64,000 nt of DNA from an uncultured Clostridia bacterium (lineage in GTDB: Bacteria > Bacillota > Clostridia > Christensenellales > UBA1242). The number at the start of each line of letters is the position of its first letter. Positions within the stretch are counted from its first letter, which is position 1. Location: contig CALWGY010000002.1 of NCBI GenBank assembly GCA_944380265.1, forward strand, positions 3,556-67,555, in the 5' to 3' direction. Positions 8,160 through 16,761 of this stretch are shown piece after piece. The notes beneath the pieces are model-generated. The model was not told the origin of the DNA and searched no databases. It saw only the letters and a program-made list of their open reading frames with translations. Both the position numbers and the translations under genes were made by a program.

Positions 8160-8199
8160 GCAGTTGGCTAAAAGGTAATACTATCTTTTAGCCAACTGC
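8160..8199 (-). promoter_or_regulatory. putative rolling-circle origin hairpin with a TAGTATTAC loop
   Basis: Perfect 15-bp stem gcagttggctaaaag / cttttagccaactgc. The 10-nt loop reads ATAGTATTAC on the - (rep-sense) strand. Predicted nick TAGTATT/AC between 8177 and 8176. Confidence 0.7.
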
Positions 8200-8227
8200 T
8201 AATTTTATAAAGTTTCAATTTGTAACC

Positions 8228-8260
8228 GCGGAACGGCACGCAGGCTTGTTGCCGTTCCGC
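8228..8260 (+). other. GC-rich hairpin (terminator-like, or a candidate complementary-strand origin or packaging element)
   Basis: 11-bp stem gcggaacggca / tgccgttccgc with an 11-nt loop, followed by ttgtttttt. It is strikingly GC-rich for this DNA. The duplicate is at 16790..16822. Confidence 0.4.
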
Positions 8261-8291
8261 TTGTTTTTTGCCTTGCAAGGTCAATGGTCAG

Positions 8292-8439
8292 TTTACCACA
8301 TTACCACATTTTATGTGGAAATGCTGGAAAACTTTGGAAATGTGGAAAAAGCACAGCATAGAAGAATTAATGCTTTTACCACATTATCACATTGACTGGA
8401 AAAGTGGAAAAATCTTTGATTTTACACACTTTACCACAA
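8292..8439. repeat. iteron field: TTACCACA(T) / (A)TGTGGAAA repeats in both orientations
   Basis: TTTACCACAT at 8292, TTACCACAT at 8301, ATGTGGAAA at 8313 (forming the palindrome CCACAT-ttt-ATGTGG), ATGTGGAAAAA at 8340, TTTACCACAT at 8375, TATCACAT at 8385, AGTGGAAAAA at 8403, TTTACACAC at 8421, TTTACCACAA at 8430. The duplicate is at 16854..17001. Confidence 0.65.
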
Positions 8440-8441
8440 GG

Positions 8442-8858
8442 CTAATCATTATAATCATTAACAACTTTTTTAGTTGTTTTTAAACTTTCTAATTGTTGTT
8501 TTAATTTTTCTAGTTCAATTTGTTTTAATAAATTTTCATAACGAATTTTTAATTTTTCTTCCAAATTTTGTACTTTATAAACAATTTTGTTTCGTTTATC
8601 TTTTAAAAACTTAACCTTATTAAGCCAGATTTTTTGCTTTTCTATGTTATTTTTTTCTTTTTCTTTCCAATAGTTATTTAAAGCACGTTTTTCTAATTTT
8701 TCAAATTTTTGCAATTCCTTAAAATCTTTTTTATAACGTTTGAATAAATTCCTATTATGTGCTAAAAACATATATTTTGGTGTAGTTTCAATAAAACTAA
8801 AACTTATTGCATATAGGTTCGAATAAAATATCATTAACTCTTGAACATTATTAAACAT
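8442..8858 (-). CDS. Lys/Glu-rich coiled-coil protein (prophage), function unknown
   Basis: 138 aa. The stop of the upstream ATPase gene is 3 nt before its start. Confidence 0.5.
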   Translation of the reverse strand: MFNNVQELMIFYSNLYAISFSFIETTPKYMFLAHNRNLFKRYKKDFKELQKFEKLEKRALNNYWKEKEKNNIEKQKIWLNKVKFLKDKRNKIVYKVQNLEEKLKIRYENLLKQIELEKLKQQLESLKTTKKVVNDYND

Positions 8859-8861
8859 ACT

Positions 8862-13332: not shown

Positions 13333-13340
13333 AAAATCAC

Positions 13341-14414
13341 CTACGCAATATGTGAGTGTTTATACATTTTTAATGAAACATTTCCGCCAACAAAAATACC
13401 GCCAAATGTATTTTCACCATCACCACTTAAATATTCCCAACGATAAGAACCAGAAATTAAAAATTCAATATCATCATCATCGATAATTGTTCCATAATCT
13501 ACCAAACGAGTTCCTAACAATGTTATGCCATCAACATCATAAAAACTAACTAAACATTTTTCAATTTCATAAACAGCATAAAAAGTTGTATCATCATTAA
13601 TTTGAACATCTGACAAATTATCAATTATATCAACATTGTTTAAAGACCAGCCTTTAAATATATAACCATCTTTTGTTGGTGGAATTACATTTTCATTTAA
13701 AGTTTTTCCTTTTAACAAATCAAAATGTTTAAACTCTTCATTATCAACAATAAATTTTACGCAATTAAAATTTTCTAACACATCATCTTCATTAATAGGA
13801 ATATCTTTAACAGGCTTAATTTCAATTTTAAAACCATTGTTATTAAAGTAATCATTCCAATAATTAACGGCTTTTGCTCCGCCAGTTGTTGTGATATTTA
13901 ATCTTGTTGATTGTTTATAAAAAACTAATTTAATATTTAAAGTATCTTTAATTAATTCTGAATAATTATCATCATAAAAAACATATGTATAATTAACATC
14001 AACAAAATCAATTGAAGAATTAATAATATTTGTTGGAGTATCATTAACTAAAATTATATAACTTGTATTTTTGCTTAATTCCAATGCTTCATTTTTAACA
14101 ATTGTTAAATCATATTTATTTTCTTCCGCAGTTGACTTTAAAACAAGATTATTTAATTTAAAAGTCATTTCGTTAACTTTAATATCTGGTTTAATAACAG
14201 AAGATATTACACCATAAACACCACCACTTGCACTATAATATTTATTAATTTCTATACCAGCAAGAAAAGTAACAAATATGTACAAAACACCTATACAAGT
14301 AAACAAAATATATCTAAAAGTTGTAGAGCGAATAAAAATAATTAATAATATTAAAATTATTACAAGTAACAAAATATCATAAATTATTGAAAAATCAAAT
14401 AACCATTTAAACAT
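13341..14414 (-). CDS. membrane-anchored Listeria-Bacteroides-repeat protein (copy 2)
   Basis: Translation identical to 4779..5852. Confidence 0.6.
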   Translation of the reverse strand: MFKWLFDFSIIYDILLLVIILILLIIFIRSTTFRYILFTCIGVLYIFVTFLAGIEINKYYSASGGVYGVISSVIKPDIKVNEMTFKLNNLVLKSTAEENKYDLTIVKNEALELSKNTSYIILVNDTPTNIINSSIDFVDVNYTYVFYDDNYSELIKDTLNIKLVFYKQSTRLNITTTGGAKAVNYWNDYFNNNGFKIEIKPVKDIPINEDDVLENFNCVKFIVDNEEFKHFDLLKGKTLNENVIPPTKDGYIFKGWSLNNVDIIDNLSDVQINDDTTFYAVYEIEKCLVSFYDVDGITLLGTRLVDYGTIIDDDDIEFLISGSYRWEYLSGDGENTFGGIFVGGNVSLKMYKHSHIA

Positions 14415-15648
14415 TTTCGCCACCCCCAACATCAATTGAAAAACCATTTAAAATTTCATTATAAAGTTGAAAACCACAATAAGTTTTTTCATTTGGTGCA
14501 TTTACATTAATGTTATGTTTTAAAAACTCTTCATAATCTATATAAACATTCAATTTAATTACATCTTTATAATTAGAATATTTTGATAAAAAAGAGTCAT
14601 CTAAAATTAAATCATATGTTCCATCAACATTGTCAATTAATTTAAAATTATTAGTGTTAACATCAACTATTGAACGACCAATAAAATAATTATCTTCAAC
14701 AGAATTTTCAACAAGATAATTAGGTGATGCATGCAACAAACCAAACAAACTATCGGAAGAACTTTTTGCACCATCTTCACTAATTTTTATTGATATAGCA
14801 TAATAATTCTTAACATGGTTAACCACTTTTGTACTATCTTCCATTGGCATTTCATCAAAAACACCATCGCCTTTATATTCGTAATAATCAAATAAATCGG
14901 CAAAATCAAAAACAATCATATTGTTAGTTCCATATTTTAGAGTTCCACAAGATTTTTTCAACAAAAAACTTAAATAATGAACATCAAAATATGAATAATA
15001 TGATGCATAATTTTGAACGCCCCATAACACGTTAAAATCGTAACCATCTTCAAAATCAGCGACATGTGATAAATCATTCATAGGTGTGTTTAGACCCTTA
15101 AATTTCATACCATAAACTTCATTACCAATTTCAATTACAAAAAAATCATCTATTGTTATTTCATTAGTTGAATAATATGAAATTCCAGAAATATTATCAA
15201 CAGTATAACAATAACTAGTACCATTTACACCAGGACTAAAAGACCCCCAGTAAGAATAGTAATCTTTTGCGTTATACCAACCACCAACATGTTTAATTTT
15301 TTCGCCCTTTACTGCATTGTTATAATGATAAGCATAATCAACAAAACCATTAACATCTTTTGAAATATATTGAAAACCTTTTGAAGAAATAGTTGTTTTG
15401 TTTTGGTCCGACAAACTATTTAATTTTATTTCAAACATTTCAAACCCATTTTTATTTTTGTTGGTATAATAATTAAATTCAATAATTGGTTTAACAACAG
15501 AACCATCTTCTGATGTTTGCAAATCTACATAAAAAGCATTATTAACGTTTTTTTCAGGTGCAAAAAATAAAATGTACAAATACCAAAAATTAACAATTAG
15601 TGTTAATGCAAAAGTGCAAATTCCAATTATAATTAATGTTTTTTTCAT
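14407..15648 (-). CDS. secreted or membrane-anchored prophage protein (copy 2)
   Basis: Translation identical to 5845..7086. Confidence 0.6.
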   Translation of the reverse strand: MKKTLIIIGICTFALTLIVNFWYLYILFFAPEKNVNNAFYVDLQTSEDGSVVKPIIEFNYYTNKNKNGFEMFEIKLNSLSDQNKTTISSKGFQYISKDVNGFVDYAYHYNNAVKGEKIKHVGGWYNAKDYYSYWGSFSPGVNGTSYCYTVDNISGISYYSTNEITIDDFFVIEIGNEVYGMKFKGLNTPMNDLSHVADFEDGYDFNVLWGVQNYASYYSYFDVHYLSFLLKKSCGTLKYGTNNMIVFDFADLFDYYEYKGDGVFDEMPMEDSTKVVNHVKNYYAISIKISEDGAKSSSDSLFGLLHASPNYLVENSVEDNYFIGRSIVDVNTNNFKLIDNVDGTYDLILDDSFLSKYSNYKDVIKLNVYIDYEEFLKHNINVNAPNEKTYCGFQLYNEILNGFSIDVGGGENV

Positions 15649-15656
15649 ATAACCCC

Positions 15657-16631
15657 CTAAAAAATGTTATCAATTTCTTCTTTTAACATTTTTTCTTCTT
15701 CTTTATTTAATTTAATAAAATCAGAACGATACAAATCTTTATAATTTTCACGTTCAACATAAGTTCCAGTTTTATCAATTCGCAATATTGTTTTAATGCG
15801 TTCGTTAAACGCATTATAAATTATAGGTTTATTTCTTTGCTCATCTTTATAAATTTCATTTAATGGCAAATTTGAAATTATATAAACTTTTGTATAACAT
15901 GCAACTTTATTCGCATAACGTGCAGGTAACATAAAAGGGTAAACATCTAAAAGTCTATTCATAAGTTCAATTTTAAATTGTCCACTAAATTCATCTAACA
16001 CCAATATGTCTTCATTTTTGTAATTATCAAAAGTAGAATTGTTATAAACACTTGCATGATAAAATTTGCCAAAACCATATTTATCATAAACATAACGAGT
16101 TTTACCAGTTCGTGGTGGTCCATAAATAAAAGTAACATCAACATCACGATTTTTAATTAAAAATTCAGAACTTAAATAATCTGTTCTAATCTTTTCAATT
16201 TTTGTTAAATTACTTAAATAAAGTTTAGGGAATAATCTAGCAAGTTCTAAATCAGTTGCACCATTTTGAACTAGTTCAATAAAATTAGATATATCAGTCC
16301 TTGCTCGTTCTTCCGCAAAAGTTCCCAATTCATACGGACCACTTATTCTTGTTTCAGATTTTGTGCAATAATCACGTGCTTGTGCATTAGTTCCTTGAAC
16401 TGGTTCAATATGTGCCGTTGGAAAGTAATTTTTTAATGTACTAAATCTTTTACCAACGTTAAATATTAAAAATACTTGAAAATGTATTATTTCTTTTTCT
16501 TCACCTTTTTCACGTTGGAAAGCACAATATTTAAAGTGTTCTAATTTTTGAACATAATCAGAAAACTCATCATCACTTTCAGATGGATTATTTATTGTTA
16601 AAAACCATCTTCTTTTCATTGTATCAGTCAT
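15657..16631 (-). CDS. rep: HUH + SF3 Rep (copy 2)
   Basis: Translation identical to 7095..8069. Confidence 0.85.
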   Translation of the reverse strand: MTDTMKRRWFLTINNPSESDDEFSDYVQKLEHFKYCAFQREKGEEKEIIHFQVFLIFNVGKRFSTLKNYFPTAHIEPVQGTNAQARDYCTKSETRISGPYELGTFAEERARTDISNFIELVQNGATDLELARLFPKLYLSNLTKIEKIRTDYLSSEFLIKNRDVDVTFIYGPPRTGKTRYVYDKYGFGKFYHASVYNNSTFDNYKNEDILVLDEFSGQFKIELMNRLLDVYPFMLPARYANKVACYTKVYIISNLPLNEIYKDEQRNKPIIYNAFNERIKTILRIDKTGTYVERENYKDLYRSDFIKLNKEEEKMLKEEIDNIF

Positions 16632-16721
16632 AATTCACCCTATGTTACACAGTAAAATAGCATATGTTACAATTTTTTTTATTAAAAAATGGCTTAATAT
16701 AGTGCTATGTTACGATGTTAC

Positions 16722-16761
16722 GCAGTTGGCTAAAAGGTAATACTATCTTTTAGCCAACTGC
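16722..16761 (-). promoter_or_regulatory. origin hairpin with a TAGTATTAC loop (copy 2)
   Basis: Identical to 8160..8199. Predicted nick between 16739 and 16738 on the - strand. Confidence 0.7.

Follow-up and report, generated by a model that had tools for sequence, protein, structure and literature searches.

Two copies of a small phage-like genome stand head to tail at a tRNA-Ser gene in a 64,000-nt window (the whole stretch of DNA analyzed here, from an uncultured Clostridia bacterium), each with its own predicted rolling-circle origin, and the locus raises the question of whether the paired origins serve to make phage DNA. An earlier note on this DNA had proposed that a replication initiator (Rep) starting at the right-hand origin and terminating at the left-hand one would release a unit-length circle, and that the array, rather than either single copy, may be the productive unit. 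The window is part of a metagenome scaffold (European Nucleotide Archive ERZ28614714, scaffold_64, 189 kb). Our reading, an evenly balanced judgement, is that the locus holds a head-to-tail pair of heteroimmune variants of a temperate, Zot-ATPase-encoding single-stranded DNA (ssDNA) phage, and that Rep-mediated release from it is possible but the pair is most likely not an obligatory production unit.

The attL-to-attR insert comprises 18,720 bp, an 8,562-bp integrase-less unit followed by a 10,158-bp integrase-bearing unit (Table 1). Both units contain block X, which is 100% identical between them over 8,033 bp and recurs with a period of 8,562 (4367-12399 = 12929-20961). The 25-bp att core is present exactly twice in the window, with no third copy there even when three mismatches were allowed. 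The integrase gene adjoins attR, and attL and attR are direct repeats that duplicate the tRNA 3´ end, as in tRNA-integrating temperate phages. Beyond X the two units carry different regulatory modules. In R1, a perfect TTGACA-17-TATAAT promoter (12671-12643) precedes the early gene, and the 68-aa repressor retains the whole helix-turn-helix (HTH) domain, lacks the C-terminal half and takes its stop codon from phage P´-arm DNA. Module R2 (from 20962) holds an 88-aa gene and a 107-aa HTH gene, followed by the integrase. The units look heteroimmune since the R1 and R2 repressors are 58% identical and the divergent-promoter (switch) regions are unalignable.

How the left unit came to end as it does can be read from the middle junction, where the repressor gene runs to ...TTTTCAAGG and gives way, after GGGATT, to P´-arm sequence (CGAAACATAAC...). 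In this phage group attP, as read from the related contig L009, consists of a P arm, the 25-bp core and the P´ arm. R1 (535 bp) is 100% identical in six other contigs, and in five of these (L010, L030, L031, L033 and L034) it leads into genes for a full-length repressor of 107 aa and an integrase of 427 aa; L010, the closest integrase-bearing relative of unit 1, is 99.84% identical to it. Because R1 continues into these genes elsewhere, unit 1 is, as its sequence reads, a deletion derivative of an L010-like integrase-bearing phage that no longer has the C-terminal half of the repressor, the integrase or 15 bp of the core. All full-length repressor alleles conserve the missing C-terminal segment, which argues for truncation rather than extension. 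We propose that the right unit would be the resident complete prophage, and the left unit an integrase-less, repressor-truncated derivative of a sister phage that would have arisen by deletion between the GGGATT of the repressor gene and the GGGATT of the attP core.

Each unit also carries an identical 40-nt hairpin, GCAGTTGGCTAAAAG-GTAATACTAT-CTTTTAGCCAACTGC, whose 10-nt loop reads ATAGTATTAC on the minus strand, with an intact rep gene directly downstream on that strand. Folding of the region as ssDNA gave a 15-bp stem and the 10-nt loop (z = -7.4 versus shuffles), and the nonamer TAGTATTAC has just two occurrences in the 64 kb, 8175-8183 and 16737-16745, each on the minus strand, against 0.46 expected by chance. 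Following circovirus and geminivirus nicking, the nick is predicted to fall between T7 and A8, which puts the two sites at 8177/8176 and 16739/16738; the direct repeats 8,562 nt apart that the earlier note had described are thus borne out on the sequence. The 324-aa Rep matches Pfam Viral_Rep (PF02407, 5.5e-11) and the superfamily 3 (SF3) helicase family RNA_helicase (PF00910, 4.6e-7), and aligns over its full length to porcine circovirus 2 (PCV2) Rep (PDB 7LAR, 8.8e-20) with all catalytic motifs matched. The HUH nuclease motifs are motif I FLTINNP at residue 10, the HUH motif HFQVF at 50 and YCTK with the catalytic Y88; those of the helicase are Walker A GPPRTGKT at 171, Walker B LVLDEF at 210 and motif C IISN at 251. 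Candidate iteron-like GTAACAT repeats sit in the interval that separates the hairpin from the start of rep, and the last two form a tandem directly against the stem, an arrangement resembling the circovirus iteron/origin layout. The locus thereby has the anatomy of a circovirus-type origin, a hairpin with a nonanucleotide loop next to rep plus iteron-like repeats, at which nicking is predicted.

For ten related loci, we compared the sequence upstream of rep. In L002 and in four prophages from metagenome-assembled genomes (MAGs), L015, L016, L018 and L020, whose Reps are 33-57% identical, the stems are wholly different and the loop keeps (T/A)AGTATTAC; L002, which is bajarodino virus 74, carries the TAGTATTAC hairpin itself. 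The hairpin is identical in L005 and L014, which encode the same 324-aa Rep, and relative L017 has TAAGTGTTAC, while a hairpin scan of L001 (bajarodino virus 13) found none. The origin call goes beyond pattern-matching because the loop is kept over non-conserved stems, as a functional nick site predicts. In the window, on the other side of the hairpin, between the ATPase operon and the origin, an 11-bp hairpin is followed by a T-run and then by dense direct and inverted TTACCACA/TGTGGAAA repeats, a region that is a candidate complementary-strand origin or packaging signal. In L020 (positions 9933-10782), from a rabbit-gut Clostridia MAG, rep has a tandem duplication of its 5´ part (~400 bp, 80% identity), adjoining the TAGTATTAC hairpin on its downstream side.

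Provided that the pair physically exists and Rep is produced, Rep would nick the minus strand at 16739/16738, host polymerase would displace that strand leftward, and Rep would cleave again at 8177/8176 and seal an 8,562-nt circle, which corresponds exactly to the integrase-less genome. As had been predicted, this circle would carry the 68-aa HTH gene and no integrase; its path leads from the unit 2 rep through the 413-, 368- and 91-aa genes, the joint, R1 and the remaining unit 1 genes to the left origin. Nicking, termination, packaging and formation of the pair are steps that we infer. Origin-to-origin release is feasible because the origins are paired, both Reps are intact and the loop is kept in relatives, and by analogy it would be the expected consequence of two direct-repeat origins and an HUH Rep, with strong precedent. 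The earlier proposal thus stands as to anatomy and feasibility, whereas the idea of the array as the productive unit is not supported, for reasons given below.

Table 1. Features of the tandem insert and its surroundings (positions are those of the window)
Feature	Position	Strand	Remarks
attL, 25-bp core TTTGGCGGAGAGTTAGGGATTCGAA	4352..4376	+	duplicate of tRNA-Ser 3´ end; exact repeat of 23072-23096
Unit 1, integrase-less phage genome, 8,562 bp	4367..12928	-	X (4367-12399) + R1 (12400-12928)
rep copy 1, 324-aa circovirus-type Rep	7095..8069	-
Four iteron-like GTAACAT repeats (candidates)	8080..8159	-	plus-strand ATGTTAC at 8080, 8102, 8145, 8153
Origin 1 (left), 15-bp stem + loop ATAGTATTAC	8160..8199	-	predicted nick 8177/8176
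Predicted origin-to-origin release product, 8,562-nt circle	8177..16738	-	inferred from origin positions
GC-rich perfect 11-bp hairpin (8228-8260) + TTACCACA/TGTGGAAA repeat cluster	8228..8440, also 16790-17002
Zot/pI-like morphogenesis ATPase copy 1, 281 aa	8862..9707	-	phrog_197 Zot-like, 1.2e-6
R1 early gene, 87 aa	12340..12603	-	downstream of perfect sigma-70 promoter
Module R1, 529 bp	12400-12928		87-aa gene on -, 68-aa HTH gene on +
Truncated XRE-type repressor, 68 aa	12738..12944	+	Pfam HTH_3, 2.2e-19
Joint J	12929..12938	+	GGGATT common to repressor gene and att core; partial core GGGATTCGAA remains
Unit 2, complete prophage, 10,158 bp including one core	12929..23071	-	X (12929-20961) + R2 + integrase
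rep copy 2, identical to copy 1	15657..16631	-
Origin 2 (right), identical to origin 1	16722..16761	-	predicted nick 16739/16738
R2 repressor, full length, 107 aa	21311..21634	+
Tyrosine integrase, 440 aa	21671..22993	+	Pfam Phage_integrase, 8e-17
attR core	23072..23096	+	overlaps tRNA-Ser(tga) 3´ end
tRNA-Ser(tga)	23074-23161	-

A close precedent is CTXphi, which, as the earlier note had said, makes its DNA from tandem arrays in this way: PMC8265649, which refers to Davis & Waldor 2000 and Moyer et al. 2001, describes RstA nicking two Ig-1 sites. Like the CTXphi/RS1 arrays of Vibrio cholerae, the window has a filamentous-type pair whose two rolling-circle origins point the same way and lie one unit apart; in both, the released genome would combine the downstream portion of one unit with the upstream portion of the following one, and the units can carry different repressor alleles. 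If the scaffold is correct, two same-orientation origins flank one unit here and the initiator gene is intact, as in CTXphi. The differences are equally clear. CTXphi is integrated by the host XerCD, does not excise and needs the array, whereas the window phage has a tyrosine integrase, attL and attR at a tRNA, and evidence of attP junctions in relatives. RstA has no helicase domain, whereas the window Rep combines HUH and SF3 domains; RS1 lacks morphogenesis genes, whereas the second type of unit here lacks the integrase instead; and the hosts are Vibrio cholerae and a low-GC Bacillota, respectively.

Another precedent comes from eukaryotic viruses: PMC2585570, citing Stenger 1991, describes the release of geminivirus genomes from tandem copies by a Rep of the same class. 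Geminivirus, circovirus and nanovirus replicational release likewise uses a Viral_Rep-type HUH + SF3 Rep, and geminivirus/circovirus-type origins likewise have a hairpin with a (T/A)A(G/T)TATTAC loop nicked after position 7, two such direct-repeat origins releasing one unit. In those eukaryotic viruses the repeats are engineered or T-DNA-borne, whereas here the array would be a natural one in a bacterial chromosome.

Both precedents bear on a different account of the same circle, namely that the array exists as such, yet the 8,562-bp circle comes mainly from RecA-dependent recombination between the 8,033-bp direct repeats, the two origins having no joint role; the popped-out circle would then replicate autonomously by ordinary rolling-circle replication. 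The repeats are perfect, the mosaic backbones of the relatives point to frequent recombination, and the product would have the same sequence as that of replicational release. Yet geminivirus tandem copies preferred replicational release over homologous recombination (PMC2585570), and two nick sites plus RstA are reported in PMC8265649 to be necessary and sufficient for the CTXphi circle in a reconstitution in E. coli BL21. We consider predominance of the RecA route somewhat unlikely at this locus.

Whichever route operates, the array is not required for phage propagation. The CTXphi situation, in which the array is needed as the prophage cannot excise, does not hold here: there are an integrase, perfect attL and attR sites, an attP in L009, single-copy prophages and an independent circle. 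This circle, L014, is a Logan contig of 9,743 nt from an unrelated run (SRR30170042), found by an exact search with the 68-aa truncated repressor, the last residues of which are created by the joint. A 30-nt terminal overlap, which would be k-1 if, as we assume, Logan's k is 31, closes L014 into a 9,713-nt circle that contains rep, the ATPase and R1, has exactly the hairpin and joint of the window, and lacks an integrase. As L014 is a closed integrase-less circle with this joint, the predicted kind of molecule exists, and, judged by gene content, it carries all genes for autonomous rolling-circle replication. Release from the pair would thus be one of several routes to a circle that is itself a self-sufficient replicon, and for these reasons the pair is most likely a by-product of superinfection and recombination with a resident prophage rather than an obligatory unit.

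Several observations weigh against our own reading, and some of them also count against the array as the productive unit. L014 assembles as an unbranched circle, without a chromosomal branch or a tie to chromosomal junctions of similar abundance in its sample, so that the integrase-less form needs no array there. Each of the seven related prophages examined, six of them from MAGs and the other L021, has a single origin. A full attP junction is present in L009, which in its positions 1-12182 runs from the tRNA and attR through a close variant of the phage with the same Rep to an attP with the full 25-bp core and then enters the integrase again, and which may be either an excised circle or a tandem of integrase-bearing units. 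Both the physical tandem and Rep activity are predictions from the scaffold sequence. The X copies show zero differences, as would be produced by an assembler reusing one graph node, while L010, the nearest integrase-bearing R1 phage, differs from X at 13 sites. Last, there was no convincing small hydrophobic alpha-helical major coat protein among the minus-strand open reading frames (ORFs) of 25-130 aa. The same strain, moreover, is found with X+R2+integrase as a single prophage in L038 and L039, from another study (samples BRZ_FK and BRZ_EH), where flanks and prophage are 100% identical to the window over >18 kb. A further consideration against a need for the array is that homologous recombination of the 8-kb repeats would give the same circle.

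The full-core attP junction in L009 suggests that the integrase route works, and it bears on the view that the integrase excises the whole 18,720-bp pair (attL x attR), after which Rep would resolve it, from its two origins, into an integrase-less 8,562-nt monomer and a 10,158-nt monomer with integrase and attP. The intact integrase and the perfect 25-bp attL and attR fit such excision, as does the attP junction in so close a relative, but no excisionase was identified, and we think this course of events rather unlikely.

The identity of the X copies raises the more basic concern that the layout is an assembly artefact. The cell could hold a single X+R2+integrase prophage while an X+R1 phage is present in the same sample as free replicative-form or virion DNA; the shared X would then make a loop through R1 in the de Bruijn graph, one traversal of which prints attL-X-R1-X-R2-attR with X copies that are identical by construction. 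Much about these contigs fits this account. The window is a metagenome scaffold, its X copies agree at 8,033/8,033 positions where independent relatives differ by 0.16-0.2%, and L009, from the same pipeline, runs through the phage and re-enters it across attP. X-only contigs of other samples (L011 and L012) stop exactly at branch points, the strain is a single lysogen in BRZ_FK and BRZ_EH, the integrase-less form can be a free circle, as L014 illustrates, and the heteroimmune R1 and R2 modules make superinfection of a lysogen plausible. On the other hand, the 68-aa HTH gene occurs in 50-200 kb contigs of three collection blocks (perhaps from the same pipeline), and an episome with 8 kb of near-identity should recombine with the prophage. 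Because of such recombination, some of the cells probably carry a genuine tandem whichever account holds. We regard assembly threading as a serious alternative, if somewhat short of an even chance. One of the X-only contigs, L012 (BRZ_GB NODE_12241; = window 4352-12399), ends at the att core start and at the X/R boundary, so the attL/attP and R1/R2 alternatives seem to coexist in its sample; that sample possibly contains two heteroimmune phages in tandem, both with an integrase, from which the window array could plausibly derive.

Comparison of the window with L014 is also informative about the joint. The same joint (repressor codon 65 / GGGATT / P´ arm) lies at window 12929-12934 and at L014 7320-7325. 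To its left the two are identical. On the right side they have different P´ arms: that of the window belongs to its own backbone, and that of L014 to another backbone, identical to the L009 attP and the L005 attL at ~30 informative sites, which begin 48 nt from the joint. L014 is also 99.7% identical, as far as the joint, to the integrase-bearing phage L030 from a sister run. The same 6-bp joint is therefore present, in these assemblies, on two backbone/P´-arm haplotypes, each matching its own integrase-bearing relative, which suggests recurrent or site-specific formation. The joint may have formed independently on each (for example by the integrase at GGGATT), may have been exchanged site-specifically, or may reflect a crossover inside a stretch of 54 bp.

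Aberrant excision at secondary sites is a known activity of tyrosine integrases, as in lambda gal/bio-type events. It would likewise join an att core to an unrelated internal site with few common bases, although the product here differs from the lambda type in that it loses the integrase and half the repressor, keeps competence for replication and morphogenesis, and recurs on two backbones. Integrase-less circles might accordingly be made repeatedly and directly, out of lone prophages or free circles, the integrase joining the att core to the repressor GGGATT, and the pair in the window would be such a circle re-inserted beside a prophage. Besides the recurrence of the joint on two haplotypes whose first distinguishing site is 48 nt away, this idea could draw on the 20-nt AGAGATTTTCAAGGGGGATT, which is identical in the R1, R2 and L005 repressor alleles. 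Those alleles, however, amount effectively to two independent ones, because R2 and L005 share their C-terminal halves. Only 6 bp are common to the two sites, the flanks are dissimilar, and the repressor of L021, a more distant relative, does not contain the hexamer. The GGGGGATT site is likewise not conserved as DNA in L021 when viewed beyond the close relatives, and for that reason we claim no selection on it. The reciprocal attL x repressor-site product, an integrase remnant without a phage, was also sought, but all of the contigs with the exact integrase (6/6) had it in full phage context. We hold repeated formation and re-insertion of such circles to be improbable. More improbable still is the fuller version of the idea, in which recurrent integrase-catalyzed recombination between att core and repressor gene sheds the integrase and truncates the repressor in one step, giving a possibly de-repressed, 'committed' non-integrating circle that re-enters beside heteroimmune prophages; if it were true, the paired origins of the re-entered circles would reshuffle backbones by origin-to-origin release.

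To return to the reading of the pair as heteroimmune variants of a Zot-encoding ssDNA phage, support for an inovirus-like phage comes from the ATPase, since a Zot/pI-like (FtsK-family) morphogenesis ATPase is typical of filamentous phages (Tubulavirales/Efunaviria). A Pfam search of this protein returned no Zot match, and the weak PHROGs match is given in Table 1. A profile of its homologues matched PDB 2R2A, the Zot N-terminal domain, at 0.0018. An AlphaFold 2 model built from a 16-sequence alignment (predicted local distance difference test (pLDDT) score 72) had 2R2A as its top PDB match in Foldseek (3.8e-8, TM-score 0.40-0.60), and several models named 'Zonular occludens toxin [Inoviridae sp.]' were among the best viral matches in BFVD. 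On the strength of the model, the ATPase is Zot-like, more firmly by structure than by sequence. PHROGs gave no structural-protein matches, and Pfam and PHROGs searches of the 413-, 368-, 304-, 117-, 91- and 70-aa proteins gave only a weak Listeria-Bacteroides repeat. The designation inovirus-like, which the modelled ATPase supports, is incomplete because no small hydrophobic coat protein was found.

By Rep, the closest annotated phages are the bajarodino viruses (PQ006184 etc.), 5.7-10 kb circles from rodent faeces that encode Zot and a related Rep (33-37% identity to the window Rep). L001 and L002 are circular virome genomes with a gene annotated 'transposase' in place of the tyrosine integrase. 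The unit had no Megablast match among GenBank phages, no relative emerged when IMG/VR was scanned with a Rep peptide pattern, and an exact hairpin search of IMG/VR and the Joint Genome Institute (JGI) metagenomes had 0 matches, hence no independent circular or viral contig of this exact phage there. Roux et al. 2019 (PMC6813254) described an inovirus Rep family, iPF_00203, with a rolling-circle nuclease and a C-terminal SF3 helicase (S3H), and set aside ~800 of 10,295 inovirus predictions as tandem prophages. Kazlauskas et al. 2019 (PMC6668415) described integrated bacterial 'pCRESS' elements with such Reps, called plasmids and without viral structural genes, and stated that inovirus Reps have no helicase domain; the word 'nonanucleotide' is absent from the main text of that paper. 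The window element has in common with iPF_00203 inoviruses, pCRESS elements and bajarodino viruses that all are bacterial elements with a CRESS-type Rep and site-specific integration, but it differs from pCRESS, for which no viral structural genes are reported, in having a structurally Zot-like ATPase.

The host of the phage pair is a low-GC Bacillota gut bacterium, as indicated by the ~25% G+C of the 64-kb window, the standard genetic code, Rep relatives in Clostridia/Lachnospiraceae MAGs and a T-box leader. The T-box leader, at window 50501-50700 on the minus strand (Rfam RF00230, 105 bits), is consistent with a Bacillota host. To the left of attL lies a variable defence-like island (window 682-4408; L005 13978-20975), which in the window encodes a 1038-aa PLD-nuclease/helicase/DUF3427 protein, a NUDIX protein and DUF2290 with a UvrD-like gene, and at the same position in other strains HATPase_c_3, DNA methylase, AIPR, DUF4420 and Z1. 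A 186-aa ORF (3848-4408) crosses attL into phage DNA.

Tandem filamentous-type prophage arrays with rolling-circle release are a known kind of arrangement; more notable are the finding of a circovirus-type origin in a Zot-encoding phage of bacteria and the integrase-less joint that recurs. Should the array exist and be active, it would represent replicational release by a circovirus-class Rep occurring naturally in a bacterium. It would also link the CTXphi paradigm, which is Gram-negative and XerCD-dependent, to integrase-bearing filamentous-type phages of gut Bacillota, and would offer heteroimmune phages a simple route to swap backbones, as the mosaic backbones of the relatives suggest. The locus also supports two points that do not depend on the array: integrated elements of the 'pCRESS' type, with circovirus-like Reps, can be phages that encode Zot, and bacteria conserve the nonanucleotide origin of circoviruses, a point that bears on the proposed plasmid or phage ancestry of the modules by which CRESS-DNA viruses replicate.

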